From Azolla caroliniana (lineage: Eukaryota; Plantae; Polypodiophyta): DNA of 64,000 nucleotides. Below the pieces are notes generated by a model. It was given only the letters and a program-made list of their open reading frames with translations, had not been told where the DNA came from and searched no databases. Below are positions 20,218 through 63,600 of this stretch, piece after piece. The position numbers and the translations under genes were made by a program. Each line of letters begins with the position of its first letter. Within the stretch, counting starts at the first letter, position 1. The stretch is taken from assembly GCA_043228905.1 (NCBI GenBank), contig JBHGNT010000017.1, positions 12,648,001-12,712,000 of the forward strand, given 5' to 3'.

Positions 20218-22759
20218 TAAGAGAGGTGTAGAACTCTCTAGAGAAGGAAAGAGTGAGAGGGAGAGGGAGAGAGAGAGAAGTGATGATAACAAAAAATATA
20301 TATTATGTGAAGAGAATATACAGTAGTATCTAGGAGGCTTAAGTCTAGCGTTGAACCGATTTGGTTCGAAATAATGCCTTGTGCCTCCTTATATAGTGTT
20401 TTCAGGCGTACTCTTGAAGTTTCTAGAATGTTCCAGAGAAATCTGGAATATACATCAATTTTCTATAATGAAATAATAAATGAAAATAATATTTTTCCTA
20501 TTACAATGTATAGTCTCATGGCAAGGGCTCGACCCATGTAAGATAAGGTCATGGGTTCGAATCTTACACTATCCCCCCTTTAAAACGACGAGTGTTACGA
20601 GTCATTTTGGATTGAGGACTTGGTTTTTCTAGATATCGACGATGGAAATCTTAAAGAAGAGCACGAGCATTGGTCACATTCTCTATTGGCTTGCTAGGAC
20701 TATATCCTAGCCAATCGACCAAATAGTAGAGCTTGTTGTGAACAATCTTGGAATCAAGGATGATGGCAACCTTGTAATCAGATCCATCTTCAAGTTCGAT
20801 TGGGGGTGGAGGTGGTTTGATACTACCTGGGATAGTGCTGTCCTGATAGGGTTCTAGAAAAGAACTACGAAATACCAGATGTATCCGTAGTTGCAGAGGT
20901 AGATCGAGACAAAAAGCGACATCATTAATTTTTCCGATAATACGGAAAGGAGCCAATCACCGATAATCCGATTTATCGCATGGGCGAGTAGTCTTGATGT
21001 GTCATCGTAATAGCCATACCCAATCTCCAATGTTAAAACAGGATGGAAGCCTTTCATCATCGCCTTGTTGTTGTGAAAGAATGGTACCCAATGCGAAATC
21101 CGACACTTCTGCCTCAATGATGAATGGTTTTGCCATATCAACATGAGCTAGAATAGGAGCTGATGTAAATGCCTTCTTAAGACTCTCAAAAGCCATGTCC
21201 GCTTCTTTACACCAAACAAATGACTACCCCTTCTTGGTAAGTTGTGTGAGAGGCAGAATACGCTTTGAGTAATTCTGTATAAACTTGTGGTAGAAATTGG
21301 CAAAGCCTAAAAAGCATTGCACATCTCGCAACGAACATGGAATTTGCCACTCTACCATAATTTTGACCTTAGCTGGATCCATAGAGATGCCTTCGGAGGA
21401 GATGACATAGCCCAGAAATTCCACTTGGTTGCACTCGAAGCTACATTTTTCTAGTTTTGCATAAAGACCATGTTCTCGAAGCCATTTTAGTACTAACAAT
21501 ACATGAGAATCATGCTCTTCTTGGGTCTTCGAATAAACCAGTAGATCATCCAAATAGATGATCAAAGAAACATCCAAGAGATCTCGAAATATATCATTTG
21601 CCATATGCTAGAAGACTGTTGATGCATTAGTGAGATTGGATGACATGATCATATACTCAAAGTGCCCATATCTGGTGTGAAATGTGGTCTTCCATTCATC
21701 TCCGGGTCGGATCCATACGAGGTTATATGCTGCTTGTAAGTCGATCTTTGTGAAGAACCTTGCACCATTGATCCGTTCTAAAAGACTTGAGATAAGGGGA
21801 AGTGCATACTTATTCCTGATGGTGACCTTATTCAAGCCGCGATAGTCTACGACAAGACGAAGTGATCCATCCTTTTTCTTAATGAAAAAAATGGGTGCGC
21901 CGGCTGAACATTTCGAATGTTGAATGAAATCGTTTGCCAAATTCTCCTCTATATAGGCTCGAAGAACTTCTAGCTCGGTTTGTGACAAATTGTAGATCGG
22001 TCCCCATGGGGGCTCTTTTCCTGGTTGTAAATTGATGGGGCAATCATACGGTTGGTGGTGAGGAAGCGTATTGGCTTGTACCTTATTGAACACATCGGCA
22101 TACTGGCGATACTTCTCTGGAAGTTGAACTATGGATTCCTCTTTAGTAGTGTTGGAAAGTTTTCCTGATATCGTGAAGACAAACATTTCTTCCTTGCGTC
22201 CTTCCTCATGCAATTGATGTAGCGAAATGGTTGCAATCTTATGAGTAGATCCTCGGATTTGTCGATACTGGATTTCTCTTGTGTCGAAATTCCGTGCTCG
22301 GCCACAACCGAGGAACTGGATCGATTCACAGAAAAACGGGAAATTCAACAATGCACGAAAACAATAGAGAGAAGGGTACACTGGATGTTTTACGTGGAAA
22401 ACCCTAAATGGGAAAAACCACGGGAGTGCAAGACTCCAACTATCACTATACGCGGGAATGTACAATGGCGAGCTGCAAGGCGACGACCTTGAGCTCACTG
22501 TCCTCGCCACAGGCGGCGGTATTACACAGAGGCGTCGACCTCTTCCTTCCTCTTTCTCTCTCACTCTCTCTCGGCTGCTCTCACTTCGCTCCCTCTTAGT
22601 GGAAAACAGAAAAATGAGCAACAACATAAACTGTATGCCCTAAGTCATATTTATACACATATGACTTTCGGGCTATTTACAAATATAGCCTCAAGGGCTC
22701 TTGGCAAACATATTCACAAATATGTCCCCGCATCCGGATCTCCCTCCGGGTACATTCGT

Positions 22760-23000
22760 CATCCGGCTCCGTAACCGGGGTCTTCAGCATCCGGCTCCGT
22801 AGCCGGGGTATTCATCATCCGGCTCCGTAGCCGGGGTCTTCATCATCCGGCACCGTAGCCGGGGTATTCATCATCCGGCTCCGTAGCCGGGGTATTCATC
22901 ATCCGGCTCCGTAGCCGGGGTCTTCATCATCCGGCACCGTAGCCGGGGTCTTCATCATCCGGCTCCGTAGCCGGGGTCTTCATCATCCGGCACCGTAACC
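22760..23000. repeat. 28-bp tandem repeat in U3 of the A1 3' LTR (8 units plus a partial unit)
   Basis: Unit CATCCGGCWCCGTAGCCGGGGTMTTCAT. The 5' LTR (about 27655-27867) has 7 units plus a partial, which accounts exactly for the 28-bp LTR length difference. Confidence 0.95.
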
Positions 23001-23072
23001 GCAACCGGGCTTGCCGTCATTCATCTCCGGACATCCCATCCGGAGGGACCGAAATCCCAACAAACTCCCCCT

Positions 23073-27145: not shown

Positions 27146-30100
27146 TTTCTGTGTTACCGTCGCTCTGATACCACTTTGTCGAAATTCCGTGCTCGGCCAC
27201 AACCGAGGAACTGGATCGATTCACAGAAAAACGGGAAATTCAACAATGCACGAAAACAATAGAGAGAAGGGTACACTGGATGTTTTACGTGGAAAACCCT
27301 AAATGGGAAAAACCACGGGAGTGCAAGACTCCAACTATCACTATACGCGGGAATGTACAATGGCGAGCTGCAAGGCGACGACCTTGAGCTCACTGTCCTC
27401 GCCACAGGCGGTGGTATTACACAGAGGCGTCGACCTCTTCCTTCCTCTTTCTCTCTCACTCTCTCTCGGCTGCTCTCACTTCGCTCCCTCTTAGTGGAAA
27501 ACAGAAAAATGAGCAACAACATAAACTGTTTGCCCTAAGTCATATTTATACACATATGACTTTCGGGCTATTTACAAATATAGCCTCAAGGGCTCTTGGC
27601 AAACATATTCACAAATATGTCCCCGCATCCGGATCTCCCTCCGGGTACATTCGTCATCCGGCTCCGTAACCGGGGTCTTCAGCATCCGGCTCCGTAGCCG
27701 GGGTATTCATCATCCGGCTCCGTAGCCGGGGTCTTCATCATCCGGCACCGTAGCCGGGGTATTCATCATCCGGCTCCGTAGCCGGGGTCTTCATCATCCG
27801 GCACCGTAGCCGGGGTCTTCATCATCCGGCTCCGTAGCCGGGGTCTTCATCATCCGGCACCGTAACCGCAACCGGGCTTGCCGTCATTCATCTCCGGACA
27901 TCCCATCCGGAGGGACCGAAATCCCAACATCTTGTTCTCCAATCTATGTCTGGGTTATGTAATTCGAACCATGGTAACCCCAAGACAATTGGATGATCTC
28001 GACTACTAATTATATTAAATGATACTACACACACCAAGTTATCTAGGACAACTTGAATAAGCTTTGACTCTACGATTTTTTCGGAAGCAATGGGATGACC
28101 ATCAATAACTACTATAGATGTTGGGTAAGAAAGTTTTCTTAGGGATATCTGATGAGCTTGGGCAAAATTCCTATCCATGAAGCAAGAGTTGACTCCGGAA
28201 TCTAAGAGTGCTAGGACATGTACTGGAGCAGTACTTTTAGTACTAACCATTACTTGAGCTCTGAACACATTGCTAACTTGCTTAGAGGAAATGGAACCAC
28301 TAATGGGCTACACAGATCTAGGGTTGTCCAACCAAACGGCTCCTATTTTGGTTGGACTTAATCGTTTAACTCTTCTTCTAGTTGACTAAGGATTTCAAAT
28401 TTGTTTGAAAGGCTTGGGCTATTAGGACTATTAGACACACCTAGAGAAATAGACTTGGGTTTAGTACTATTAGTACTAGCGGTTATTTGATTTACTTGCC
28501 TTCTTGGCCGATGGGGACAGTTCACTGCAATATGCTCCGGTCCACCGCAATAAAGACATAATCGATTTGCCCAACGTCGCTTCTTTTCTTCTTCCGATAG
28601 TGGTCCACGACAACGTGTGGTGTCAATTTCCATTGGAGCCAAGGTATTTATTGGAGAGGTATTAAATGACTCCCTTGGGAAAGGCTTTGCTACAACTGAA
28701 GCGTAGGTGGGCTCCGATCTTGCCCTCGTCATTTGAAACTGACGTGCCGAACGTTTTTCGAAGAGGTGGTATCACATCGTACTACGCGACTGCTTGCTTC
28801 TGTCAATAACTTTGGTTCTTCGGGGAAGGTCAAGAAAAAATCCTTGACATCGTTACGTAGTCCATAACGAAATTGCTCTATTAATGCTTGATCCTCCTAG
28901 GGGATATCGGAGGTGAGTAGACGGAAATGTGTAGCGTATGCGGAGGCTGGACGGTCACCTTGAAGTAATCATCGGATTTTGTCGATTGTTGTCCTTATGC
29001 TATTAGTATCTCCAAAAAAGGCTTTAAACTCACTTATACACTCTTCAAAATTGTTTAGTAATGGAGATTCCTTTTCTAACAACGGAGAGAACCATGCCAA
29101 AGCTGAGCCACTTAACAACATGCCTACTAGATCCACTCGTGATGCATCGGTGGGATATCGGGAAGGAAGCATTTGAATGACTAATCATACATGATTAAGG
29201 AATCCTCTAAACTGTGATCGCGTTCCACCGAATTTCATAGGAAGGCCGATCTTGGGTTCTTTATGAATCCCTTGCGTACTTGGTCCTTGTTGTTGCAACG
29301 TTACAATGGTCGCTTCGAGCTGTTGCAAGCGTGATGCTAGTTCCCCATGTTGTTTTTGTGTTTGCTGCTTCTCTAAGGAGATTTGTCGCAGATCCCCCAA
29401 AAACCGTTGATTTTCTTGTTCCAATGTAAGAAACTTCTCTTTAAAGCATTGCAACTCCGAGAAAACGGATTGATATTCTTCAGCACTGACAATGGCCATA
29501 GTATGAGAGAAAAGAGGAATAAGAGATTAGTATGAAGGAAGGGAGAAGTAAGATGATAAAAGGAAGAGGTGGAAGGAGACCAAAATCGGTTCAAACTGTT
29601 AGGAACAATACTAAGATAGAGAATTATTGTCAGGAACAGTACTAAGACAGAGAAGGAATTAGTACTAAAAGGTGTGGATTAGTATTAAGAGAGGTGTAGA
29701 ACTCTTGAAAGAAGGAAAGAGTCAGAGAGAGAGGGAGAGAGGGAGAGAGGGAGAGAGAGAGAGAGAGAGAATGATGATAACAAAAGATATATATTATGTG
29801 AAGAGAATATACAGTAGTAGCTAGGAGGCTTAAGACTAGCGTTGAACCAATTTAGTTTGAAATAATGCCTTGTGCCTTCTTATATAGTGTTTTCAGGAGT
29901 ACTCTTGAAGTTTCTAGAGTGCCAGAGAAATCTGGAATATACATCAATTTTCTATAATGAAATAATAAATAAAAATAATATTTTTCGTATTACAATGTAT
30001 AGTTTAATGGTAAGGGCTCGGCCCATGTAACATAAGGTCATGGGTTTGAATCTTCCCAAGTCATGATAGTTAATGCTTTTCTAAATCACGGTCACCACAC

Positions 30101-30156
30101 ATCGATCGATTGCCATCCCTCAAAAGAAAACAATCAACAAACAAAACATTAGAAAC

Positions 30157-30410
30157 ATGGCTTGGATACCAATTGTTAGAGCTTAGATCTAAAGTAAGCA
30201 TATGATAAGGATATAATAGATATAAAATAAGAAAGGAGAGAGAAACAAGGGTGCCGATCCAACCGACCACCCCCGAGCGAAGGGATCAAGATGAACTCGA
30301 GCCTCGATTGGTATACCATACCACCGCCGTGGCGTCGAGTTGTACCTGGTGCTGTGTCACTCGCTACAAGAGTTGAGCCACCACAAGAACGGAGTCTCGA
30401 CATAGTCAAG
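30157..30410 (-). repeat. 3' part of a family C LTR with adjacent iMet-like PBS
   Basis: Inverted homologue of 10095-10330. The minus strand reads ...CTCTAACA AT TGGTATCCAAGCCATG. Confidence 0.7.
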
Positions 30411-32917: not shown

Positions 32918-35771
32918 TGTCATTTCCATGACAACGGTGATGTTATGATTCGAACTCGTGACCTATTGTATTTAATCGATATGTTTTAACCAATACATCC
33001 AATACATAATCATGTTAGCTTACTAGATTATTGTAGATTATCTATTCTACATGTAGGATTTTAGAAGCTTCCAGAAAGCTCCAGAATCTAGAACATTCTA
33101 GAAGCTTGTGCATGAAAATGAGTATTTGCATGGGGCTACATTTAGAGCCCATAAACATGTATAAATATAGGGGTTCACCTTGGCCTTAGTCAAGGTGAAC
33201 AACACCAGTTACGGAATCATAATTCAGTTCTTGTTCTCTGACTACTTTCTCTCTCTCTTTCTTATTATCTTGTCTATGATCTCTCTCTTAGTATTGAGCC
33301 TTGTCTACATGTCCATGATAGTTTGTTCACCTTCCATCTCTAAAGCCTCATCATGTCAGATTCTACCGAGAACATAAATCAACTATTGGCAACCATGCAT
33401 CAACTTCAACTTGAAAATGAGAATATTTGGGAATCTCTCCAGAAACTCCAAGCTAGGACTCCAATGGAATTGGAGAATGAAGAACCCAAGTGCCCTCCTA
33501 CATCAAGGAATCTCCAATCTATAGATCTTGGCCCCTCGTCAATCCTCACTCCAATTCCTCTTGGCCCCACTTTAACTATAGAACCCAATGTTAGTTTACC
33601 TGACAAGTTCGATGGCACAAGGGTGCGATTCTAGGGGTTCATAAATCAGATCAAGATTATTATCCAGCTACAACCCCAAAGATATGCAAATGATTTTTGC
33701 TGAGTTGGCCTCGTTAGGACTCTCCTCTTGGGAGCTGCACAAAGCTGGTTCGCACCTTTGATCGAAACATCATTGCCAGTTCTCGACAATTTTTCTGCTT
33801 TCCTAAAGGAGTTCGAGGCAACATTTGAGGATATGGATTGGCGTCGAACAACTCTATTCATTACATCAAGGTAAGCGTCCAGTGTCTGTTTATGCATCCG
33901 AATTTAGACAATTGGCATGTGATGTTCATTGGGACGACCAAGCCCTTATTGACCATTTTCATCGGGGCATTCAAAGTGATGTTAGGAATCTACTACTAAA
34001 CTTCCTGGAGCTGACTTCATTATCACAAGCCATCAAGCAAGAAGTCAATTGTGACAACCACCTTTTTGAACTTCGACTAGAGGAACATGCAACTTCCAAG
34101 TTGTGGCCCTTTCTCCATGTTAAACCTATGGTACAACCCCAAGTGACTATGAGATCTCCTCCAACGACATCGTTCAATGATCATATGCCAATGGAAATTG
34201 ATCCAGCTCGAGCCCCACTCACCACAGCCGAACGACACCATCGACGAACCAATGGGCTATGTCTATACTACTACACCTCTACCCATCTAATTCGTTTTTG
34301 CCCACTCAAAAGCAATCTACGACAAGTCTATTAGGACAATCCAAATAGTGGGTCCCAACATTCAGAAAATGACAATGTCCACCTACAATAGGAGCCATGC
34401 GGTTGGACAATAGACATACATGCTGCTCCCAAAGTTCTACTAACGACTTTTCTTTTGAGGTAAATCTCTGTTTCCAGTCTATTTCAATTCAATCCTTAGC
34501 GCTACTCGATTCCGGGGCCACGACATGTTTTATGGATGAAACATTCATTCGTAAACACTTTCCTGTTCTCTAGTTGTCCAAGCCTATCCCAGTTGAAGCT
34601 ATGGATGGGCGAATGCTCTCCTCTGGCGTAGTCACCAAAGCCACATTCCCACTTATTTTGCAACTCAGGACCCATCAAGAGGCCTTATTATTTTACCTCA
34701 TCACTTCACCACGACATCCAATCATACTTGGGTTGTCTTGGTTGAAAACGAATAACCCTAATATAGATTGGCACAACCACTCACTTACTTTTCAACTGCA
34801 AACTCACATGGAGGTTGGAGCAACTTCCAATGTCGTTGTGTCAGAATGGCCCGAATAATTTTCTGTCGAGCACTCCTGCATTCAACTTGGACCAATGCTC
34901 TTGGATGCTCATGCCCCAGTCACAATGCACTCCATCTCAATGGGCAATGACTCAGAGTGGAGTACCCTAGCTTTGGTTCCTATGAAAGCCAATTTGGACT
35001 CGCTTCCATCCAAATATGGTGACTTTGCTGATGTCTTCGAGAAGAAGAATGCACATCACTTACCGGAGCATCGACCATATGATTTTCCGATCGATCTACA
35101 TGTTGGGATTACGGTCCCTCCGGATGGGATGTCCGGAGATGAATGACGGCAAGCCCGGTTGCGGTTACGGAACCGGATGATGAAGACCCCGGTTACGGAG
35201 CCGGATGATGAAGACCCCGGTTACGGAACCGGATGATGAAGACCCCGGTTACGGAGCCGGATGATGAAAACCCCGGTTACGGAACCGGATGATGAATGTA
35301 CCCGGAGAGAGATCCGGATGCGGAGACATATTTGTGAATATGTTTGCCAAGAGCCCTTGAGGCTATATTTGTAAATAGCCCGAAAGTCATATGTGTATAA
35401 ATATGACTTAGGGCAAACAGTTTTATGTTGTTGCTCATTGTCTGTTTTTCCACTTAGCGGGAGCGAAGTGAGAGCAGCCGAGAGAGAGAGAGAGAGAAAC
35501 GAAGAGGTCGACGCCTCTGTGTAATACCGCCGCCTGTGGCGAGGACAGCGAGCTCAAGGTCGTCGCCTTGCAGCTCGCCATTGTATATTCCAGTGTATAG
35601 TGGTAGTTGGAGTCGTGCACTCCCGTGGTTTTTCCCGTTTAGGGTTTTCCACGTTATACCCTGTGTATTCATCTCTCTGTGTCTTTGTTTTATTTTTCTG
35701 CTGCATTGATCAGTGTTGTCTCGGTTGTGGCCGAGAGGCGAAAGATTTGATAGCGTCAAAGCTTTACAAAG

Positions 35772-35783
35772 TGGTATCAGAGC
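35772..35783 (+). promoter_or_regulatory. Primer-binding site for initiator tRNA-Met
   Basis: TGGTATCAGAGC, 3 nt after the 5' LTR; the canonical plant iMet PBS. Confidence 0.97.
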
Positions 35784-35799
35784 GACGATAACACAGAAG

Positions 35800-46929: not shown

Positions 46930-49133
46930 GAGAGAGAGATAGAGATTAACACATAGAAGGTACGCAGGAGAGACAAAGAAAGAGCAAAACAACTCAAATC
47001 TATTATCAACAACTCTCTAAAATTCTTTGTACATACAACGTGCTCAACAACACTATTTATACAAGTCCTAAGAGGACTGACAGAAGTACGGTGTACTTCA
47101 ATGCTCACACGAGTGTCTGACACTAACTACGAGACATTAACTACCTAGTAGTCTAGGCTACTACTAGGCTTCCGGTTACTGCTTGATCCGGCTAACCGGC
47201 TCCCCAGTTCACCGGCTCACCAATCTGGCTCATCCTTCCGGATGCCAATCCGGCTTAGGCTTATTCAGCCAATTTGGATCCGGTTGAGCTTGCCGCTCAA
47301 CAACACTTCCCACCAATAAATTCGCCAACGCAATTCAGGAAGGTCTTATTGATCCGTCTAAATCCAAGACCAAGGAAGCCCTTGACCACTTCAGATTTGA
47401 GGGGGGATTGCTTTACTGAGACCAACTCTTATATGTTCCAGAGGGCTGATGTTGAACTCAAGTTCTCGTAAAGTGTCATGATGACCCCTTGGCTAGTCAT
47501 TTTGGCGTTACAAAGACAGTCGAATTAATCTCACGAGGATATTGGTGGCCTCAACCATGAAAGTTCATCAAGGAATTCATCAAGACATGTAATACTTGTG
47601 CTAGATCCAAAGTCATCCACCATAGGCCATATGGGTTGCTCCAACCACTTCCCATTCCCAACCGGCCTTGGGCATCAATTTCCATGGATTTCATCACCGA
47701 CTTGACTCTTGTCCATGGATATGAGACAGTGCTTTTCATGGTAGATCGGTTTACAAAGATGGCTCATTGTGTCCTTTGTGCAAAGACTATTTCAATAGAA
47801 GCAACAACCAATCTATTTTTAAAGAATGTGGTGAGGCTTCATGGGGTCCCATATGATGTCACCTCAGATCGCGGACCCCAATTTGTCTCTCTTTTTTGGC
47901 GGCGGCTCCTTCAAACATTGGGCACAACAGTGAATTTCTCTTTGTCCTATCATCCTCAAATAGATGGTCAAACGGAGCAGGTGAACCCAATTATTGAGCA
48001 ATACCTTCGATTCTCGCTTAGCTACCAGCAAGATGATTGGGTTGATCTCCTACCCTTGGCAGAGTTCACATATATTAATACGCTACATGGTTCAACTGGC
48101 GTCACCCCATTTTTCGCCAACTATGGTTTCCATCCTCGGTTCAATATTTCCATCCTTGGCAAATCTGTCAACTTGTCAACGGAAGGACGTGCTCTTATTT
48201 TAGCCGACATTCATCAAGTCCTCTCCCTCGAACTCATCCTTGCAAGGGACCGGTATAAAGCACAAGTTGATCGACATCATTCCGCTACACCCACCTTTGC
48301 AGTTTGTGATCAGGTTTGGCTCTTATGTCACCATGTCGATACTACTTGACCTTGCGGAAAGTTGGATTACAAGAAGTTGGGGTCTTTCTGTATCCTTGAG
48401 TGTGTCAATCCCATCACTTTCCGGTTGAAACTTCCTTCACATTTCCGGATTCATAATGTCTTCCATACCTTTCTTCTCGAATCTTATCATCCATCCACTA
48501 TTCTAGGAAGACACTCTCCACCTCCACCTCCAATTGAGCTTTCCACAGGTGAGGAGTATGTGGTGGACCAGATTCTAGACTCTCGTTGGCAATGATGACA
48601 TCTTCAATACTTAGTCCTATGGAAAGGGTATCCCATTTCAGAGGCAACTTGGGAACCATCCCAACACTTGGAGAATGCACCGAATGTTGTTCATGCATTT
48701 CATCACCAATATCCACAAAAAATGGAGGGGCATCTTTAGAGGCGGCCTTAGCAGGGGGATAATGTCATGTACGTGACAACAGTCATGTCATGATTCAAAC
48801 TCTTGACCTACTGTATTTAATCAACATGTTTTAACGAATACATCCAATACATAATCATGTTACCTTACTAGATTATTGTAGATTATCTATTCTACATGTA
48901 GGATTTTAGAAGCTTGTGCATGAAAATGAGTCTTTGCATGAAGCTACATTTAGAACAAACAAACATATATAAATACAGGGGTTCACCTTGGCCTTAGTCA
49001 AGGTGAACAACACCAATTATAGAATCATAATTCCGTTCTTGTTCTCTTCACTACTTTCTCTCTCTCTCTTTCTTATTATCTTGTCTATGATCTCTCTCTC
49101 ACTCTCTTAGTATTGAGCCTCATCTACTTGTCC

Positions 49134-50014
49134 TGTGGTGAGAATTTCCCATAGTATTCTATACGCGTTGTCGTGTGGTGTGTGACACACGTGCCAAACG
49201 TCGGAATGTGCGCGTCACAAGCGCAGACAAGCACCAGGCCTCTATCCACTAGTGGTTATGGATGATGGGCGGCTGAAGTGACGCACTAATGTGGTTAGAG
49301 TGAGAGAGAGAGAGAGAGAAACAAAATTTGAGGAAGTTTTTAAGATAGATAGGTAGATAGATACACATCACCAATAAGATAACTAAGTATTCTTATTATT
49401 AATTTTCGATTTGATACATAGATTGTTTGATTCATCCATTGATTGATCCCCCCCCATTACACAAACCTTTCGAGGGTTTTTATAGGTTTATCTATCCTTC
49501 TAACATGCACAAAACCATGGGCTTGAACCCATGGTTTTCGGGCACACGGTTTTCCTTGTGGCATGCACAAAACCATAGGCTAAAACCATGGTTTTGTATG
49601 TTTGTTTCCTATGGAATACTAAATCTGAGAAGGAAATATACAAAATCTAAAGCACTTAGTAGTACCTTTAGTGGTAAGATAATTGCTTCCTATCTTAGAA
49701 GTGCAAGGTTCAAATCTTGCTTGCACCATTCTATATGCACTTGAATGCATCAGACCCTAGGCTAATTTTCATATTTATAATCATGTGTATAATGTGTGTG
49801 GAGCCACACTATTTCACAATTTCTCACATTGGACACAGAACATCACGACAACGTGGATAAAGTATAAGTGTTAAACAAGAGTGTAAAGAAGGGGGGGATT
49901 ACTTTTAATGCTCGGGATTGAGACAACCCATTAGGCCAAGTGTGAACTTGCCTGAGGGCCTTAGGTCTGACTATAAATATGAGGCCTAGCTACCCTCATT
50001 TCACACATGATCAA
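49134..50014 (+). repeat. Continuation of the family C LTR, split by a solo LTR and cut by a copia LTR
   Basis: 49134-49168 and 49851-50014 are colinear with 9923-10095. Confidence 0.75.
49169..49850 (-). mobile_element. Solo LTR of a diverged clade D relative (682 bp)
   Basis: TGTCGT...ACGACA termini; apparent 4-bp TSD GCGT/ACGT; absent from the empty-site copy near 9950. Shares GCAAGATTYGAACCTTGCAC..TCTTACCA with D LTRs on the minus strand. Confidence 0.78.
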
Positions 50015-51818: not shown

Positions 51819-53537
51819 TGTCGTGTGGTTTTTCACACACGATATGAAAACTATGTAAAAAAATAATGAAATAATTATTTTAGATTACATTAGTAGCTTG
51901 TTATAGAAAGATGGATGTACTCAAGAGCTTTAAAACGCATTTCACTACATACAAAATGGAAGCTATGAGAACATGAAGTTTGAGAACATAGGGAAAATAG
52001 AACTATGCTTTATCTCACATAGATAGGAAACTTAAGGCCCTGGCTATATAAGCACATTGAGATCCCTCATTTTTCATTTGTGCTAAGAGCCCTTTGGCCA
52101 CTTTTTCTAGATGGATGAATGTGGCCAAGTTACCAAAAAACCAAATCACAACCAGCCCCAAAATCGGAACCCGCCGGTAAGCAAAACCTGAACTGGCTGG
52201 TAAGCAAAATCGGAAATCGAACGGTAAGCAAACCGGAACCGGCGGCGGAGCCGGTGAGGCGGCGGCAATTGGCGACCGGACGGAACCGGCGACCAGACGA
52301 AGCTAGACGCAAACTGAACGGATAACAGGATCATGTGGCTAATTAAAGTGAAGTGAAGAAAACTAAAGTAAAGGTCATGTGGACGGTCACATGCAACTAA
52401 AAATAGATGCAACGAAAAGAAAAAGCTATACAACTAAAAGTAGAGGCCATGCCACAAGTGGAAAGGCTATGATCAACGGAGAACTCCATATATATTCCAT
52501 TTTTTTCCTACACTCATTCTCTCTCCATTTTTTATTTTATTTTCCTTCTTAGCTCCCTTATCTTATCTAAACCAGAACCCTCATAAACCCTAATTTCCCT
52601 ACAGAAGCCATTAACCCTAAATTTCCTTATGACATATTGTAATTTCTAAATCTTCCAAATCCCAATCTTAGGACATATTGTAATTTCTTTTCCTTTGTTA
52701 ATGAAAATTATTAAATTTTCTCCTTTTTCTTAATTCTTAAAAGTGTAAACGCACGAATTTGATATCCTCTAGTCGGAGGCCCCGAGGTCCTGCCTCAAGT
52801 TCACGTATGCTCGTCGTAATTTCGCGAAACCTTTGGTGAACCCGACGTGAAATGAGGCAGCAGGAGGATATCTCATGGAGGCATATAGATACAAAGAACC
52901 AAAGAGATGAAAACTATATGAGTTCGACCAATGGGTATCATCCTTAAAGACCCACCAAAGTGCCATGCATGCTTTCGTTGAGTTCGAGTGTCGCTTTGCA
53001 CAACTCTCAGAGCGGGATCAAAGATTGGTGGGGGTGGAAAAAGTCCTTATATTTGTGAAGTCAATCGATTGGAAGGAAAGGAAGGCCATTGAATTCCGTC
53101 TTGAGGATGATGATGGTGCAAATGGCCTCACCGAAGATTGGAATAAGGTGGAAAGAGTATGTCAACTACACAATAAGAGGAAGACAATATTCTCATCGAC
53201 AACAACACACCGCATGATGGATGGTGAAAGGAGGATAGGAAGCAACAACAAACTACCAACAACAATATTCGTCATCCGACTCGGCGTCGCAGTGTCGTGT
53301 GGTTTTTCACAAACGATATGAAAACTATGTAAAAAAATAATGAAATAATTATTTTAGATTAGATTAGTAGCTTGTTATAGAAAGATGGATGTACTCAAGA
53401 GCTTTAAAACGCATTTCACTACATACAAAATGGAAGTTATGAGAACATGAAGTTTGAGAAGATAGGGAAAATAGAACTATGATTTATCCCACATAGATAG
53501 GAAACTTAAGGCCCTGGCTATATAAGCACATTGAGAT
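51819..53537 (+). mobile_element. Decayed Trp-primed clade D relative: LTR 51819 to about 52829, PBS 52834-52851, gag-like remnant, duplicated LTR start at 53293
   Basis: PBS TGGTGAACCCGACGTGAA. ORF 52965..53321 (AFVEFECRFAQLSE..VKSIDWKER..GANGLTEDW). 51793-52063 is duplicated at 53267-53537. Confidence 0.8.
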
Positions 53538-53829: not shown

Positions 53830-53942
53830 TGTCGTAGTGTATTTCGTACACTACGTGAAAAAGTAAAAATAATATAACCGATTTAATTACATATAAATAA
53901 ATAAAATAATATATCAAGATATTTATCACGTGCATAGGGCAA

Positions 53943-53995
53943 GATTCGAACCTTGTACCTCCACGTAGCCAAACCTCAACTTTACCATTATGCTA
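53943..53995 (-). promoter_or_regulatory. tRNA-like Pol III internal promoter (A box and B box), antisense within LTR U3; representative copy
   Basis: Minus strand TAGCATAATGG ... GGTTCGAATC with starts 43 nt apart. Equivalent modules occur in other LTR types (see findings). Function untested. Confidence 0.6.
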
Positions 53996-54536
53996 CCTTA
54001 TCTTTAGTGTTCTATAAATAGATTTAATAACTATAACTGCTTTATTTGCGCCTACCTTTATTAAAAGGTAAATCGTGCATTTTTAGAGTGCGTGAATATT
54101 TTATAGAAAAACGCAAGCAACTAAAAAGTGACTCATGCACATCTAGCGTGCATGAGCACTATATTTAGCAAATAAAAGCAAGGATTAGAAAAGCATCACA
54201 TGCACATTTAGTGTGCATGAACATATTAGAAAAAAAAGCATGTAGCTATGCTTAGTCTCTCCCATCACTACATAAGGATGGTGAGCACAATGTAATAGGC
54301 GTGTGAAATATTTGGAAATTTGATATATTTCCGAAAACACCAACCGATTAATATAATCGTGGGATTCACGAAAATAATATAATCTATACTCGTGGGATTC
54401 ACGAAATTTCTATCTCTCTTTCTAATAATCTATTCATTACTAGCCTCATCTCATATTCTTCTTTCTCCTAGTCCAAAACCTCGGCGGTTCCCACCAGACT
54501 CACGCAACGATCCGGAGCCGAAAGGCACGACACAGT

Positions 54537-54554
54537 TGGTGAACCCGACGTGAA
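54537..54554 (+). promoter_or_regulatory. Primer-binding site complementary to the 3' end of tRNA-Trp
   Basis: TGGTGAACCCGACGTGAA is the reverse complement of ...TTCACGTCGGGTTCACCA, the 3' end of plant cytosolic tRNA-Trp as I recall it. Also at 52834-52851, 63400-63417 and, with 1 mismatch, 1328-1345. Confidence 0.85.
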
Positions 54555-54570
54555 GACGGGTGGCAAGGAG

Positions 54571-56382
54571 ATGGAGAATCAACAAGAGGCGATGAACATG
54601 ATGATGATAATGTTTGAGCGGATGCAACAAGAACAACGTGCGATGTCGGAGATGAAGGCGGCAGTAGAGCGGCTTCTGCGACGAAACGGGGAATTCAACG
54701 GTAAGGGTGTGTCACGCTACCTACGTGAATATAAGGCGGAGATGATGCAATATCGGATACCGGAAGGATTGCAAGTGACATCCTTCAATCGGGTAGCCAC
54801 GGATGAGCTACAAGAGAGAATCCACAAGATACGGCAACAAAACTCGACATGGGGGTCATTCGAAGAAGCTTTACGAGAGGCATATGATTACAAGAGATCA
54901 AAGGGACAAGATCGGCGAAAATTCGACGAATGGGTGGCATCGGAGAAGACCCACCGAAGTGCAACACAAGCATTCCTAGAGTTCGAGCATCGTTTTGCGC
55001 GACTCTCGGAGCAAGAACAAAGATTGGTGGGGGAGGACAAAGTCCTAATGTTCGTAAGATCGATTGATCGGAAAGAAAGGAAGGACATCGGGATCGAACT
55101 CGAAGACGATGAAGGTACGAATGGTCTTACCGAAGATTGGGCCGAAGTCCAAAGGGTATGCCGGAGACATGATGAGAGGAAGATGAGAATCTTGTCAACG
55201 ACATGGCCGATGAAGGATGGTCGATTGAAGACAAACGATGGAGCCGATATGAAGGCCGAAATACAACATGATGGTGCGATGGAAGAGGGTGTAAAACAAG
55301 CTACCCTCTTGTCTTGCGAAAGAACGACGGCGAAGGATAAGGCCGATAACCCAAGTGTAGAAGAAGATTTCGGAATACAAGTGTCCGAAACATCAGGTGA
55401 AAAAGGGGTAAGCATAATTGATGTTTCCATAATTGATGCAGTGAAAGAGAGCAAGGAGGACTTGATTGAGGAGGTCACAAAGAAAGATGACATCGAATCG
55501 AAGGTGGCTATGGACGAATCAATGGCGGATGGCCATATCGAGATTTCTCCACCGCTGATTCTAGAGACTCCGGCGGTTGCGTTCGAAAGGCAACGTGAGA
55601 CCGAAGAGACGGAAGGTGGCGGAGAGAAAACAAAGGTCGAAGTCGATGCATACGACGGAGAGATAGCCGAGAATATGGCTATGGGTGAAACAATGGAGGA
55701 TGATAATACCGAGGATTCCTACCCACTAATTCTAGAGACTTCGGCGGTTGTGTCCGAGAACCAACGTGAGACCGGAGAGACGGGAGGTGGCAGCAAGAAA
55801 GGTAAAGTCGGAAGCCGGTTCGGATGGAAGGTGATCCGGACGGGATTCCGATCCGAAAGAAAGCCGAACCGGGTAAAAGAGGATTCGACTGAAAGACGAT
55901 ACAAACGAAAGCCGAACCGGGCAAATGAGGATTCAGCCGAAAGACGACCCGAAAGAAAGCCGACCCGAAAAGGGGTCGACTCGGTCAAAACCGATCGACT
56001 GAGTCTGACTTGGCCGAACGCGAATATGGATGGAGGCCGACCTAGCCGAAAGCCGATCGGACGAAACCGATCCGAAAAGAAGCTAATCCGACTCAACCGG
56101 AGGTTGGACCGGTCGAGGCTGGTGAAAACGAGGAAAAGAAAGCCAACCGAAACCAAAACCGATAGATCGAAACCGGGCCGGAAAGAGACCGACTCAATCG
56201 AAACCGAACAACCGATTCCGATTCGGCCGAATACGAATCCGATCGGAAGCCGATCAAACCGAAAGTCGATCGGACGAGAGCGATCCGGAAAAAAGTCAAG
56301 GTTGATGAAGACAAGAAAGAGGCCAGTAAAAGACACTACCACGAATGACAAGGGCCAAGAATATGACGAGAGAGAACAATGA
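54571..56382 (+). CDS. Gag-like protein (603 aa): capsid-like N-terminus, acidic middle, Arg/Lys-rich tail
   Basis: First ATG 16 nt after the PBS. FNGKGVSRYLREY..W..F...L pattern resembles retrotransposon Gag. No CCHC, protease, RT or INT motif. The stop is AGA in sister copies, so it is probably premature. Confidence 0.75.
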   Translation: MENQQEAMNMMMIMFERMQQEQRAMSEMKAAVERLLRRNGEFNGKGVSRYLREYKAEMMQYRIPEGLQVTSFNRVATDELQERIHKIRQQNSTWGSFEEALREAYDYKRSKGQDRRKFDEWVASEKTHRSATQAFLEFEHRFARLSEQEQRLVGEDKVLMFVRSIDRKERKDIGIELEDDEGTNGLTEDWAEVQRVCRRHDERKMRILSTTWPMKDGRLKTNDGADMKAEIQHDGAMEEGVKQATLLSCERTTAKDKADNPSVEEDFGIQVSETSGEKGVSIIDVSIIDAVKESKEDLIEEVTKKDDIESKVAMDESMADGHIEISPPLILETPAVAFERQRETEETEGGGEKTKVEVDAYDGEIAENMAMGETMEDDNTEDSYPLILETSAVVSENQRETGETGGGSKKGKVGSRFGWKVIRTGFRSERKPNRVKEDSTERRYKRKPNRANEDSAERRPERKPTRKGVDSVKTDRLSLTWPNANMDGGRPSRKPIGRNRSEKKLIRLNRRLDRSRLVKTRKRKPTETKTDRSKPGRKETDSIETEQPIPIRPNTNPIGSRSNRKSIGRERSGKKSRLMKTRKRPVKDTTTNDKGQEYDEREQ

Positions 56383-57250
56383 ATATGGTGGATCGGATGG
56401 CGACAATGGTTCGGGTGGAAAGAATGGGTCTACTCAAAATGGAGAGACAAAGTTGACATAGAGGGATAAACGGAGGATGAAGGGGAGACAACGAGCATCG
56501 GCAACTTCGGCACATACCGGAGGATGTGCGGGTTCGGAGGGGGCGAGTGTCGTAGTGTATTTCGTACACTACATGAAAAAGTAAAAATAATATAACCGAT
56601 TTAATTACATATAAATAAATAAAATAATATATCAAGATATTTATCACGTGCATAGGGCAAGATTCGAACCTTGTACCTCCACGTAGCCAAACCTCAACTT
56701 TACCATTATGCTACCTTATCTTTAGTGTTCTATAAATAGATTTAATAACTATAACTGCTTTATTTGCGCCTACCTTTATTAAAAGGTAAATCGTGCATTT
56801 TTAGAGTGCGTGAATATTTTATAGAAAAACGCAAGCAACTAAAAAGTGACTCATGCACATCTAGCGTGCATGAGCACTATATTTAGCAAATAAAAGCAAG
56901 GATTAGAAAAGCATCACATGCACATTTAGTGTGCATGAACATATTAGAAAAAAAAGCATGTAGCTATGCTTAGTCTCTCCCATCACTACATAAGGATGGG
57001 GAGCACAATGTAATAGGCGTGTGAAATATTTGGAAATTGGATATATTTCCGAAAACACCAACCGATTAATATAATCGTGGGATTCACGAAAATAATATAA
57101 TCTATACTCGTGGGATTCACGAAATTTCTATCTCTCTTTCTAATAATCTATTCATTACTAGCCTCGTCTCATATTCTTCTTTCTCCTAGTCCAAAACCTC
57201 GGCGGTTCCCACCCGACTCACGCAACGATCCGGAGCCGAAAGGCACGACA

Positions 57251-59797
57251 CAGTTAAGCAATCCTTCCGGTCCGGGTGGCCACGGATGAGCTACAAGAGA
57301 GAATCCACAAGATACAGCAACAAAACTCGACATGGGTCATTCGAAGAAGCTTTACGAGAGGCATATGATTACAAGAGATCGAAGGGAAAAGATCGGCGAG
57401 AATTCGACGAATGGGTGGCATCGGAGAAGACCCACCGAAGTGCAACACAAGCATTCCTAGAGTTCGAGCATCGTTTTGCTCGACTCTCGGAGCGGGAACA
57501 ACGATTGGTGGGAGAGGATAAAGTCCTAATGTTCGTAAAATCGATTGATCGAAAAGAAAGGATGGACATCGGGATCGAACTCGAAGACGATGAAGGTACG
57601 AATGGTCTTACCGAAGATTGGGCCGAAGTCCAAAGGGTATGCCGGAGACATGATGAGAGGAAGATGAGAATCTTGTCAACGACATGGCCGATGAAGGATG
57701 GTCGATTGAAGACAAACGATGGAGCCGATATGAAGGCCGAAATACAACATGATGGTGCGACAGAAGAGGGTGTGGAACAAGACACCCACTCGTCTTGTGA
57801 AAGAACGATGGCGAAGGATAAGGCCGATAATTCAAGTGTAGAAGAAGATTTCGGGATACAAGTGCCCGAGACATCGGGTCAAAAAGGGGTAAGCATAATA
57901 GATGTTTGCATAATTGATGCAGATAAAGAGTGTGAAGCGGATGTGATTAAGGAGGTAGCCACAAAAGACGAAATCGAATCGGAGGTGGCTATGGACGAAT
58001 CAATGGCGGATTGCCATATCGAGACTTCCCCACCACTGATTCCAGAGACTCCGGTGGTTGCGATCGAAAGGCAACGTGAGACCGAAGAGACGGAAGGTGG
58101 CGGAGAGAAAACGAATGTCGAAGCCGACGAATACGATGAAGAGATAGCCGAGAAGAATGCTAAGGGTGAAACTACGAAAGAAGGTAATACCGAGGATTCA
58201 TGCCAACAATATCTAGAGACTTCGGCGGTTGTGTCCGAGAACCAACGTGAGACCGGAGAGACGGGAGATGGCGGCGAGGAAGGTAAAGTCGGAAGTCGGT
58301 TCGGATGGAAAATGATTCATCCGAAATTCCAATCTAAAAGAAAGTGCGACAATGCGGAGGTCGGGTCTACGACGGGAGAAGCGCGTAATACAGAGCACGC
58401 TCTATGGCGAATAAAGAAACGCGTGTTATGGCGAATAAAGAAGCACGCGCTACGGCGAGAAAAGAAGCATGCATTACAACCACACGAGGACCGAACAACG
58501 AGCACATATCGGAGGACCTACGTAGCGAACAACGGAAAGAAGTGCCGAAAGTCGAACCGGACAAGGCAGGTGAAAACGAAGAAAAGAAAACAAATCCGGA
58601 CGAAAAGAAAAGAAAAGAAACAGACCCGAAAGAGCACTGAATCGGTAAAAACCGATCAACCGAGTCCGGATCGACCGAATACAAATCGGAAAGGAAGCCG
58701 AACTAAACGAAAGACGATCCGACGAGACCGAATCGGAAGTAAGCTAATCCGACTAAACCGAAAATCCGAAAAGAAGTCGAGATTGATGAAGAAAAGAAAG
58801 AGGGCAAGAAAAGATACTACCGCGGATGACAAGGACCAAGCGGGCCATGCAAAAAGCGAACGAAGACTATGGTGGATCGGATGTCGACAATGGTTCGGGT
58901 GGAAAGAATGGATGTGCTCCAAATGGAGAGACAAAGTCAACATAACAAGAGAAGTCGAGGGTACTACGAGCCGGCAACGAAACCAATCGGGTAGAGACCG
59001 GACGGAGGAGACTAACAAACACCAACAACTTCGGCACATACCGGAGGATGTGCGGGTTTGGAGGGGGTGAGTGTCGTAGTGTATTTTGTACACTACGTGA
59101 AAAACGTATATAGTATTAGATTCAATAAAAAATGAAGAAATAGAAGAAAATAGCAAAATAAATGGAACATGCATAGGGCAAGATTCGAACCTTGCACCTC
59201 CATGTTAATAATGTAATGTCTTACCATTACACTAGCATTTCATTAGTGTTAAAGCATAGATGTCCCACATAGAAAGGTAAATTCACGCTAGGATAAACAT
59301 TAGAAAAACGCATAACAAAAGAAAAAGCTACACATACACATCTAGCGTGCATGATAAAAAACGCACAAGTTAGAAAAAGCATGATCACTTTAGATAAAGC
59401 ATATAGTCTATCTATAGGAAAAGCATGGGGTGTATAGTTAGAGAAAAAGCATGGATTACTAAGACTTCCTCATCACTACATAAGGATGGGAAGCACAATG
59501 TAATTGGGTGTGAAATACTTGGAAACTGGATATGTTTCTAAAAAACACCAATTAATAAACTATACTCGTGGGATTCACGAGGATTCTATATCATTCTCTT
59601 TCAACCGAAGTTTATATTCTTATATTCATATTGATTAATCTAATACAATACACTCGTGGGATTCACGAGTTTGCTATAACTCTTTCTTACAACATATTTA
59701 AATTCGTATTAGCCTTAAAACTCTCTTCTTCCTAGTCCAAAACCCCAGTGGTTCCCACCCGACTCACGCAAACGATCCGGAGCCGAAAGGCGCGACA
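57251..59797 (+). mobile_element. Second array unit D2: 5'-truncated Gag-like ORF (57286..59070) and type-b LTR 59072-59797
   Basis: The ORF is homologous to D1 from the ATDELQ region onward but has a different basic region. PPT GGAGGGGGTGAG. The LTR has the same termini as LTR1/2 but a diverged interior. Confidence 0.9.
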
Positions 59798-60568
59798 CAG
59801 TTGGTGAACCGGAGGATGTGCGGGTTTGGAGGGGGTGAGTGTCGTAGTGTATTTTGTACACTACGTGAAAAACGTATATAGTATTAGATTCAATAAAAAA
59901 ATGAAGAAATAGAAGAAAATAGCAAAATAAATGGAACATGCATAGGGCAAGATTCGAACCTTACACCTCCATGTTAATAATGTAATGTCTTACCATTACA
60001 CTAGCATTTCATTAGTGTTAAAGCATAGATGTCCCACATAGAAAGGTAAATTCACGCTAGGATAAACATTAGAAAAACGCATAACAAAAGAAAAAGCTAC
60101 ACATACACATCTAGCGTGCATGATAAAAAACGCACAAGTTAGAAAAAAGCATGATCACTTTAGATAAAGCATATAGTCTATCTATAGGAAAAGCATGGGG
60201 TCTATAGTTAGAGAAAAAGCATGGATTACTAAGACTTCCTCATCACTACATAAGGATGGGGAGCACAATGTAATTGTGTGTGAAAAATATTTGGAAACTA
60301 GATATGTTTCTAAAAAACACCAATTAATAAACTATACTCGTGGGATTCACGAGAATTCTATATCATTCTCTTTCAACCGAAGTTTATATTCTTATATTCA
60401 TATTGATTAATCTAATACAATACACTCGTGGGATTCACGAGTTTGCTATAACTCTTTCTTACAACATATTTATATTCTTATTAGCCTTAAAACTCTCCTC
60501 TTCCTAGTCCAAAACCCCAGCGGTTCCCACCCGACTCACGCAACGATCCGGAGCCGAAAGGCACGACA
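59798..60568 (+). mobile_element. 42-bp PBS-PPT spacer plus a second type-b LTR (59840-60568)
   Basis: CAGTTGGTGAACC fused to GGAGGATGTGCGGGTTTGGAGGGGGTGAG; the LTR is nearly identical to 59072-59797. Confidence 0.92.
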
Positions 60569-60632
60569 CAGTTGGACCAACTGTGTCGTGCCTTTCGGCT
60601 CCGGATCGTTGCGTGAGTCGGGTGGGAACCGC
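60520..60632. repeat. Perfect palindrome with 56-bp arms and a 1-nt centre (60576) at a tail-to-tail LTR junction
   Basis: ...GCACGACACAGTTGG A CCAACTGTGTCGTGC... Confidence 0.97.
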
Positions 60633-63600
60633 CGAGGTTTTGGACTAGGAGAAAGAAAAATATGAGATGAGGCTAGTAATGAATAGATTATTAGAAAGAG
60701 AGATAGAAATTTCGTGAATCCCACGAGTGTATTGTATTCGATTAATCAATATTTAGATAAGAATATGTATTTAGATTGAAAGAAAGATATAAGAAACTTG
60801 TGAATCCCACAAGTATAGCTTATATTATTTTCGTGAATCCCACGATTATATTAAGCGGTTGGTGTTTTCGGAAATATATCCAATTTCCAAATATTTCACA
60901 CACCTATTACATTGTGCTCCCCATCCTTATGTAGTGATGGGAGAGACTAAGCATAACTACATGCTTTTTCTAATATGTTCATGCACACTAAATGTGCATG
61001 TGATGCTTTTCTAATCCTTGCTTTTATTTGCTAAATATAGTGCTCATGCACGCTAGATGTGCATGAGTCACTTTTTAGTCGCTTGCGTTTTTCTATAAAA
61101 TATTCACGCACTCTAAAAATGCATGATTTACCTTTTAATAAAGGTAGGCGCAAATAAAGCAGTTATAGTTATTAAATCTATTTATAGAACACTAAAGATA
61201 AGGTAGCATAATGGTAAAGTTGAGGTTTGGCTACGTGGAGGTACAAGGTTCAAATCTTGCCCTATGCACGTGATAAATATCTTGATATTCTTATTTTATT
61301 TATTTATATGTAATTAAATCGGTTATATTATTTTTACTTTTTCACGTAGTGTACGAAATACACTACGACACTCGCCCCCTCCGAACCCGCACATCCTCCG
61401 GTATGTGCCGAAGTTGCCGATGCTCGTTGTCTCCCCTTCATCCTCCGTTTGTCCCGCTATGTCAACTTTGTCTCTCCATTTTGAGTAGACCCATTCTTTC
61501 CACGCGAACCATTGTCGCCATCCGATCCACCATATTCTTTGTTCTCTCTCATCATATTCTTGGCCCTTGTCATTCGTGGTAGTGTCTTTTATTGGCCTCT
61601 TTCTTGTCTTCATCAACCTTGACTTTTTTCCGGATCGCTCTCGTCCGATCGACTTTCGGTTTGATCGGCTTCCGATCGGATTCGTATTCGGCCGAATCGG
61701 AATCGGTTGTTCGGTTTCGATTGAGTTGGTCTCCTTCCGGCTCGGTTTCGATCTATCGGTTTCGGTTTCGGTTGGCTTTCTTTTCCTCATTTTCACCAGC
61801 CTCGACCGGTCCAACCTCCGGTTGTGTCGGATTAGCTTCTTTCCGGATCGGTCTCGTCCGATTGGCTTTCGGCTAGGTCGGCTTCCATCCATATTTGCGT
61901 TTGGCCAAGTCAGACTCAGTCGATCGTTTTTGACCGAGTCGACCCCTTTTCGGGTCGGCTTTCTTTCGGGTCGTCTTTCGGCCGAATCCTCATTCGCCCG
62001 GTTCGGCTTTCGTTTGTGTCGTCTTTCGGCCGAATTCTCTTCCTTTCGGTTCGGCTTTCTTTCGGGTCGACTTTTGGTCGAATCCTCTTTTACCCGGTTC
62101 GGCTTTCTTTCGGATCAGAATCCCGTCCGGATCACCTTCCATCCAAACCGGCTTCCGACTTTACCTTTCTTGCTGCCACCTCCCGTCTCTCCCGTCTCAC
62201 GTTGGTTCTCGGACACAACTGCCGAAGTCTCTAGAATTAGTGGGTAGGAATCCTCGGTATTATCATCCTCCATTGTTTCACCCATAGCCATATTCTCGGC
62301 TATCTCTCCGTCGTATGCATCGACTTCGACCTTTGTTTTCTCTCCGCCACCTTCCGTCTCTTCGGTCTCACGTTGCCTTTCGAACGCAACCGCCGGAGTC
62401 TCTAGAATTAGTGGTGGGGAAGTCTCGATATGGCCATCCGTCGTTGATTCGTCCATAGCCACCTTCAATTCGATGTCATCTTTCGTGGTGACCTCCTCAA
62501 TCAAGTCCTCCTTGCTCTCTTTCACTGCATCAATTATGCTTACCCTTTTTTCACCCGATGTTTCGGACACTTGTATTCTGAAATCTTCTTCTACACTTGG
62601 GTTATCGGCCTTATCCTTCGCCATCGTTCTTTCGCAAGACAAGAGGGTAGCTTGTTTTACACCCTCTTCCGTCGCACCATCATGTTGTATTTCGGCCTTC
62701 ATATCGGCTCCATCGTTTGTCTTCAATCGACCATCCTTCATCGGCCATGTCGTTGACAAGATTCTCATCTTCCTCTCATCATGTCTCCGGCATACCCTTT
62801 GGACTTCGGCCCAATCTTCGGTAAGACCATTCGTACCTTCATCGTCTTCGAGTTTGATCCCGATGTCCATCCTTTCTTTTCGATCGATCGATTTTACGAA
62901 CATTAGGACTTTATCCTCCCCCACCAATCGTTGTTCCCGCTCCGAGAGTCGAGCAAGACGATGCTCGAACTCTAGGAATGCTTGTGTTGCACTTTGGTGG
63001 GTCTTCTCCGATGCCACCCATTCATCGAACTCTCGCCGATCTCGTCCCTTCGGTCTATCGTAATCATATGCCTCTCGTAAAGCTCCTTCAAAGGACCCCC
63101 ATGTTGGGTTTTGTTGCCGTATCTTGTAGATTCTTTCTTGTAACTCATCCGTGGCTACCCGATTGAAGGATATCACTTGCAATCCTTCCGGTGTCCCACA
63201 TCGCATCATCTCCCCTTTGTAGTCATGTAGATAGCGTGACACATCATTTCCGTTGAATTGTCCGTTTCGTTGTACGAGCCGCTTTACTGCCCCCGTGATC
63301 TCCGACATCGCTCGTTGTTCTTGTAGCATCCGCTCGAACATCAACATCATCGTTATGCTCATTGCCTCTTGTTGATTCTCCATCTCCTTGCCACCCGCCT
63401 TCACGTCGGGTTCACCAACTGTGTCGTGCCTTTCGGCTCCAGATCGTTGCGTGAGTCGGGTGGGAACCGCCGAGGTTTTGGACTAGGAGAAAGAAAAATA
63501 TGAGATGAGGCTAGTAATGAATAGATTATTAGAAAGAGAGATAGAAATTTCGTGAATCCCACGAGTGTATTGTATTCGATTAATCAATATTTAGATAAGA

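Follow-up and report, generated by a model that had tools for sequence, protein, structure and literature searches.

An antisense A-box/B-box module near the outer edge of Tcn1-like and Phygy-like LTRs in an Azolla caroliniana retrotransposon nest

The transcription of LTR (long terminal repeat) retrotransposons that accumulate in silenced chromatin is an open question, and a stretch of the Azolla caroliniana genome (contig JBHGNT010000017.1, positions 12,648,001 to 12,712,000; these 64,000 nucleotides (nt) are called the window here) raises it in a specific form. The window is a nest of LTR retrotransposons in which Pfam recognizes copia polyproteins, gypsy-type reverse transcriptase and integrase, and chromodomains. 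Several of its gypsy-type LTRs carry, on the strand opposite to the element, a pair of motifs resembling the A and B boxes of a transfer RNA (tRNA) gene. What is this module, and what might it do for the elements that carry it? Its position, its orientation, its tRNA register, its box-only conservation and its presence in both Tcn1-like and Phygy-like LTRs are documented below, followed by an account of what it may do.

The module and the LTRs that carry it

Two groups of elements are concerned. G1, on the minus strand (LTRs ~30072-29597 and 20568-20218), and G2, on the plus strand (LTRs 32918-33320 and 48763-49136), both end in a chromodomain, and the sequence following the LTR is complementary to the element's own LTR (11-12 of 15 positions) in place of a tRNA primer-binding site (PBS). 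According to passages of Neumann et al. 2019 (PMC6317226), a chromodomain and a self-primer characterize Tcn1, a clade of mosses and club-mosses. By the same two features G1 and G2 appear to be self-priming Tcn1 chromoviruses; homologues named for the G2 integrase-chromodomain include fungal Tf2-like polyproteins. The second group comprises the LTR types Da, Db, D solo and a diverged solo LTR. The same paper describes Phygy as having 4-bp NCGN in 100% and a Trp PBS in 81%. The D types share a Trp-type PBS and flanks that fit 4-bp NCGN (CCGT/TCGT and GCGT/ACGT, with one mismatch each; ACGC precedes Da), which suggests that these gag-only units are Phygy-like. Taken by itself, this pairing of Tcn1-like with Phygy-like elements suggests a moss as the likely host. 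The antisense modules found in the window are as follows.

20511..20563, plus strand: G1 3' LTR; the B box stops 5 nt short of the LTR edge
30000..30052, plus strand: G1 5' LTR; B-box CpG decayed to TG
32947..33001, minus strand: G2 5' LTR
43938..43990, minus strand: D solo
48792..48846, minus strand: G2 3' LTR, decayed, B box at 48801; missed by the earlier note
49663..49716, plus strand: diverged solo; the sole stretch of this LTR that aligns to Db
53943..53995, minus strand: Da
56661..56713, minus strand: second Da LTR; missed by the earlier note
59182..59234, minus strand: Db LTR
59951..60003, minus strand: second Db LTR; missed by the earlier note
61204..61256, plus strand: inverted Da-type LTR; B-box CpG decayed to CA

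The earlier note, made on this DNA from its letters alone, had listed box motifs that are all present where it placed them, except that the B box at 61247 reads GGTTCAAATC, not GGTTCGAATC. Its count of five dissimilar LTR types is slightly generous: the LTRs differ enough to form four unalignable groups, as Da, Db and D solo align mutually at 64-83%.

In G1, G2, Da and Db the module lies on the strand opposite to gag/pol and the primer site. The orientation of D solo was inferred through its alignment to Da and Db, and that of the diverged solo (49169-49850), of which we are fairly sure, from the layout of its TATA, CT-tract and GC alone. The module lies near the outer edge of the LTR, upstream of the sense TATA of RNA polymerase II (Pol II), and hence in U3; the distance from T loop to LTR edge is 12-47 nt in the Tcn1 types and ~117-141 nt in the Phygy types. 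The pattern for a sense TATA-like match succeeded in 10 of 12 copies, where the main match is 112-272 nt away from T8; A+T makes up 65-90% of the 40 nt lying upstream of the A box.

Our chance test used the textbook A/B consensus and required a perfect B box and an A box of at least 6/8 at tRNA spacing. It returned nine matches, whereas 20 block-wise dinucleotide shuffles averaged 1.15 and never gave more than 4; a looser score (B at least 7, A at least 6) is mostly background, with 41 matches versus 25 in shuffles. In a census of 25 LTR copies and fragments, all 11 G1, G2 and D copies bear the antisense module (antisense-strand scores of B 7-8/8, A 5-8/8 and AGGT 3-4), and it is absent from 10 copia-type, two Met-primed and two other Trp-primed LTRs. 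This agrees with the earlier observation that neither the copia LTRs nor the LTR beginning at 51819 (best score B5 A6) contain it.

Conservation across nine LTR types and a search blind to the boxes

Nine LTR types, five Tcn1 and four Phygy-like, were compared in tRNA numbering. Common to them are T13 (8/9), A14, T16-G18-G19-T20 and A22, then A44-G45-G46-T47 (G45 in 8/9), G53-T54-T55-C56-R57-A58 and C61; T62 is common to seven of the nine. G18 and T54 are 36-37 nt apart in 9/9 types, as in tRNA genes. The consensus and the A-B spacing of a type 2 (tRNA-type) promoter are thus both present. Between Tcn1 and Phygy types, identity is 0.83 in the B box, 1.0 at the A-box GG and 0.94 at AGGT, and it is 0.33 at positions 22-43 and 0.30-0.34 in the flanks. 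The claim that just the boxes and their spacing are kept is nearly right; T13, A22 and, in the variable loop, A44-G45-G46-T47 persist as well.

Of 18 copies, 11 have an intact B-box CpG and the remaining seven show C>T or G>A without exception, a pattern to be expected if the site decays in copies once they are inserted and is retained in active lineages. Contigs from public sequencing runs of other organisms, three of four of which gave cover, deeply cover the D module. Variants of at least 10% fall at module positions 23, 28, 34, 35 and 48, none of them in a box, and no indels are listed within the module in these contigs, in which the whole LTR has many.

A functional tRNA gene was considered and rejected: ARAGORN reports none, and the Rfam tRNA score is 12.8 bits (Da) against a cut-off of 29. 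Cloverleaf stems pair no better than in row shuffles (acceptor 21/63, D 24/36, anticodon 20/45, T 27/45), in line with the earlier report of no acceptor or anticodon stem, and there is no covariation in the canonical stems across the nine types. The conservation points to selection on DNA and not on a tRNA, and we regard the module, with considerable confidence, as a selected tRNA-type promoter skeleton. Past the B box we saw no shared SINE (short interspersed nuclear element) body or tail across the types, although an old insertion could have lost them. As a separate observation, position 72 (for example at window 53932), 11 nt past the B box, is C in 8/9 types within otherwise unconserved sequence, and may be an extended B-box contact.

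Because the window types had been picked for their boxes, conservation was also assessed at positions that the locating scan did not use, in loci found without regard to the boxes. We aligned 24 of at least 120 homologues of the G2 integrase-chromodomain as a query and then fetched loci by protein. The best 80 of at least 566 confirmed loci from metagenome contigs, together with 2 from viral contigs, gave 82 loci; 47 were evaluable, meaning that an LTR start with at least 120 nt was located, and the other 35, both viral loci among them, were dropped. The full antisense module stands directly after the LTR start in five of the 47 (L003, L013, L017, L018 and L019), and a damaged one in two (L005, with indels, and L067, cut by an insertion); the remaining 40 have no module, including L004, L006-L010, L015, L026 and more distant loci. 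L003 is of the G2 type, L018 and L019 are one family, and L013, L017 and L018 represent new LTR types; by blastn their module regions align neither to G1 or G2 nor to one another. Unbroken pol frames of 1115-1235 amino acids occur in L003, L013, L017 and L018; L005 and L067, with damaged modules, have no frame of 250 amino acids. Self-priming is seen in G1, G2, L013 and L018.

At invariant positions unused by the locating scan, the three types found blind match 24 of 33 (10/11, 8/11 and 6/11). A composite motif, composed after the alignment was seen, has five matches in 539 kb of fetched loci, all antisense at a Tcn1 LTR start. The claim of a shared, selected, outward-facing tRNA-type (TFIIIC) module in both chromovirus and Trp-primed LTRs is supported by the conservation in nine types, three of them found blind. 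In a quick tree, which contains no named reference, module carriers fall in two groups with support 99 and 91; two changes are needed, and a single origin of the module is also compatible.

Viral contigs gave no match to the G2 integrase, the Phygy gag alignment or the module pattern, and genome contigs searched with a Phygy gag homologue gave none to that homologue. The Phygy loci read are those of the window, and the breadth of the Phygy result comes from the run contigs aligned to the Da LTR. One further feature was seen in L018, where a second antisense A/B-box-like stretch lies in the protease-reverse transcriptase linker of the open frame (L018:1062 and L018:6386, both minus strand). It occurs in both tandem units, which are 84% identical overall, is without AGGT, and lies in a linker ~15 amino acids longer than in L013 and L017; it may be a separate capture or chance.

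A candidate TFIIIC docking site and its rivals

We propose that the antisense module upstream of the LTR TATA would be the internal promoter of a tRNA gene with its tRNA fold lost, derived from a captured tRNA or the head of a tRNA-SINE. TFIIIC would bind the module, TFIIIB would load on the A+T-rich stretch that separates the A box from the Pol II TATA to give back-to-back promoters, and the complex, facing outward, would hold the LTR Pol II promoter open against silencing from its neighbours; the outward orientation would stop RNA polymerase III (Pol III) from crossing the Pol II start. A DNA site for TFIIIC is suggested by the boxes and spacing being kept while the fold is lost. In yeast, tRNA genes act as chromatin barriers via TFIIIC and TFIIIB, a complex that excludes nucleosomes and blocks the spread of silencing. 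LTR elements in moss (the main Physcomitrium families) sit in heterochromatic islands, according to parts of PMC11899658, and an element in such islands would gain from a barrier of its own. Among the three functions that the earlier note had offered (insulator, antisense RNA source, landing pad), the insulator or open-chromatin function fits the layout best. Reading from sequence features, we tentatively put first an outward-facing TFIIIC/TFIIIB docking site whose benefit is protection of the LTR promoter. The wider idea that two unrelated gypsy clades each bear a boundary of their own, bound by TFIIIC at the edge of the LTR and acquired either in two captures or by transfer from one clade to the other, is possible and more doubtful.

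Several observations weigh against such a docking site. The run-variant test, with its 5 sites and 80% likeness filter, is weak alone, and the nine-type alignment shows no conserved TATA or CAA motif upstream, such as plant tRNA genes have. The seven positive loci all belong to a single block of assembly accessions, so that their host may be that of the window or closely related to it. The module is absent from L004, a closely related Tcn1 element whose open frames are long, and from L006-L010, L015, L026 and two Trp-primed LTRs of the window; given such relatives, it is dispensable or optional. Additionally, pairing in a shifted T-arm hairpin reaches 28/45, at a shuffle fraction of 0.003 that is owed mainly to the related D types, and T13:A22, Y11:R24 and G46 are kept; together these could reflect a partial RNA fold.

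In the main rival it is the product that counts: from U3 outward, and at the 3' LTR across the purine tract, Pol III would transcribe a short antisense RNA that tunes the element's silencing or copy number or mimics the tRNA elbow. The kept A box and A-B spacing suit it, as transcription requires both, and so do the same T13:A22, Y11:R24 and G46. Foamy viruses carry Pol III units in U3 that yield small RNAs, as parts of PMC3993851 describe. A run of four T (T4) is found inside none of 12 modules and within 12-49 nt after the B box in 8 of 12. The internal absence is, however, not significant (joint probability 0.13), for which reason we rejected T4 avoidance as proof of transcription; the distance to T4 ranges overall from 12 to 1027 nt, and G2, L003 and L018 have no terminator inside the LTR. 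Nor is there a common fold: the RNA fold z-score falls below -3 in just 2 of 12 modules, and the canonical stems lack covariation. Judged on these sequence features, an antisense RNA as the module's function is unlikely. A variant in which such an RNA primes minus-strand synthesis was rejected, as it could not rebuild the full LTR and the normal primer sites are intact.

The module could instead be a neutral relic, a tRNA-SINE head that landed antisense in ancestral LTRs, spread by recombination and is now decaying. SINE heads bear these boxes (parts of PMC10741241), 'not a few LTRs' contain part of a tRNA (Kojima 2024, PMC10886601, in part), close relatives lack the module, and T62 in 7/9 types may hint at a common origin. 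Because drift would wear all positions equally, boxes at identities of 0.83-1.0 with an interior at background disfavour this explanation; in addition, a hypermutable CpG persists in lineages, and the spacing differs by 1 nt among types otherwise unalignable in the region. The conservation profile largely refutes a relic, which we consider improbable.

Slightly less probable again is an RNA helper, in which the reverse complement of a tRNA in the 3' U3 would pair with host tRNA and aid packaging or minus-strand transfer. Orientation and U3 position suit such pairing, Ty3 has a bipartite primer site, and HIV-1 (human immunodeficiency virus type 1) reportedly has a tRNA-Lys3-like sequence in U3-R, going by a paper title. 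Against this, G1, G2, L013 and L018 self-prime with no tRNA primer, positions 59-73 of Da agree with the end of its primer tRNA, as its PBS spells it, at only 6 of 15 letters, and short universal motifs, not long complementarity, are kept.

Least probable is a landing pad, by which the elements would target Pol III starts as Ty3 and Tj1 do and build nests on their own target, even though Tj1, a self-priming Tf1 relative, lies upstream of tRNA genes in 13 of 17 insertions (parts of PMC4600332) and Tcn1 belongs to the Tf1/Sushi group (passages of PMC6317226): none of the 11 window copies has a retroelement-sized insertion upstream of its A box (colinear pairs), solo LTRs measure 658-682 against 703-726, insertions into module-bearing LTRs fall elsewhere (20217, ~49137, and within the module in L067), and the D types insert at NCGN.

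If the docking site is real, a copy that lands in a silenced retrotransposon nest would bring its own Pol III insulator and so keep its Pol II promoter usable. This one answer is testable, as the cis-element is short, sharply delimited and conserved and a candidate factor for binding it is known, with natural module-less sister families (L004 and the 51819 type) as controls. At the depth seen for the D LTR, many potential TFIIIC sites would be scattered through the host genome.

The elements of the window and known systems

The elements and LTRs in which the modules are embedded are the following.

20218..20568, minus strand: 3' LTR of G1, a Tcn1-like chromovirus; 3' end cut by a copia-type insertion; preceded by chromodomain and purine tract; 88% to 29686-30054
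20578..20899, minus strand: decayed C-terminus of the G1 integrase, chromodomain included (Pfam Chromo at 24 bits, E 3.6e-5, slightly below the cut-off of 25.1)
29582..29596, minus strand: G1 self-primer site, complementing its own LTR (12/15 match in the 5' LTR, exact 14-nt complement in the 3' LTR)
29597..30072, minus strand: G1 5' LTR, outer end approximate
32918..33320, plus strand: G2 5' LTR, Tcn1-like, followed by the self-primer site and then gag
43824..44481, plus strand: D solo LTR, Phygy-like, flanks CCGT/TCGT
47561..48739, plus strand: G2 integrase (rve) and chromodomain, with stops (Chromo E 5.8e-15, above cut-off)
48763..49136, plus strand: G2 3' LTR, 81% to 32918-33314
49169..49850, probably minus strand: diverged Phygy-like solo LTR, flanks GCGT/ACGT
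51819..52829, plus strand: Trp-primed LTR without module, negative control
53830..54532, plus strand: Da LTR, heading a tandem array of gag-only Phygy-like units
54537..54554, plus strand: D primer-binding site, which we take to be tRNA-Trp-type from the tRNA sequence and the Phygy profile; a further one lies at 63417
54571..56382, plus strand: D gag-like open reading frame; no Pfam family, 37 unnamed homologues
56548-57250: second Da LTR
59072-59797: Db LTR
59840-60568: second Db LTR
61370 down to ~60584: inverted Da-type LTR

Some further features of these elements were seen. Two LTR subtypes are shared among the tandem gag-only Phygy-like units at 53830-60568; the primer site was lost at 57251-57255 and is cut short at 59802, and the LTR at 60584-61370 resembles a Da/Db recombinant. 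Two D-type LTR 3' ends stand head to head at 60451-60700 and form a long perfect hairpin that could be a source of double-stranded RNA; an Rfam MIR839 match there, below cut-off, is this inverted junction, and a microRNA was rejected. G2 sits 9 nt inside the 3' LTR (window 32909-32918) of G3, a distant chromovirus-like element (~30410-32917); the G3 integrase forms a long branch in the tree. Short terminal hairpins begin the LTR 5' ends at window 32918, 48763, 53830 and 51819 and in L003, L004 and L013, so that Tcn1 and Phygy-like LTR starts have them whether or not the module is there. Near the start of R (20350-20365, and the LTRs of L013, L017 and L018) the self-primer target forms a small inverted repeat; its core, GGTTCAA or TTCGAA, resembles a B box and probably has nothing to do with the module.

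Among known systems, Helenus is the closest counterpart. These TRIMs (terminal-repeat retrotransposons in miniature; 'TRIMp3') have a tRNA-like sequence in the LTR, thought to derive from a SINE inserted there, with boxes A and B conserved and no functional tRNA (Kojima 2024, PMC10886601, in part). They differ in being non-coding elements of 311-1263 bp, thought to be self-transcribed from the Pol III promoter, and Helenus-1_SMo, the one plant family shown in that part of the paper, has its boxes in sense. Here, by contrast, the boxes are antisense, in LTRs of 400-730 bp with their own TATA, and the elements are coding, with pol frames above 1100 amino acids. After its remark on tRNA parts in Repbase LTRs, the part of PMC10886601 consulted pursues TRIMs, and its main text makes no mention of moss or antisense; the raw resemblance of LTRs to tRNA parts may thus have been seen before. 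Cassandra and Ajax TRIMs likewise keep a Pol III internal promoter in their LTRs by selection, as the same paper relates in part, but there a 5S-type (type 1) promoter drives the element's own RNA in short non-autonomous elements.

Foamy viruses are alike in carrying A/B-box Pol III units in the U3 of a coding retroelement with a Pol II promoter; theirs produce hairpin microRNAs with defined terminators (parts of PMC3993851), whereas the modules here have no microRNA-length hairpin, constant terminator or shared fold. For the clades themselves, the passages of PMC6317226 describe no LTR Pol III module, and the D units here, unlike Phygy as described there, are gag-only. The words 'tRNA' and 'polymerase III' are absent from the main text of the Physcomitrium expression paper on transposable elements, and the literature we searched, with subscription papers, Repbase and REXdb largely outside its scope, contains no antisense A/B module in moss Tcn1 or Phygy LTRs; an earlier mention in Repbase, REXdb or the supplements of PMC6317226 is possible.

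The U3-R of HIV-1, going by the same title, is similar in having a tRNA-like sequence in U3 and differs in that its own primer tRNA is concerned, where the Tcn1 elements here have no tRNA primer. The A/B-box barriers of yeasts (tRNA genes and B boxes) and SINE boundaries are, like our proposed docking site, boxes with bound TFIIIC/TFIIIB for which a block to silencing has been proposed; they belong to host loci or SINEs and not to the promoter of a coding retrotransposon. Set beside these systems, the module is a real, selected and probably undescribed cis-element. Capture of Pol III promoters by LTR elements is already known, and the module would carry that capture beyond the tiny Cassandra and Helenus into coding elements, where the promoter faces the opposite way.

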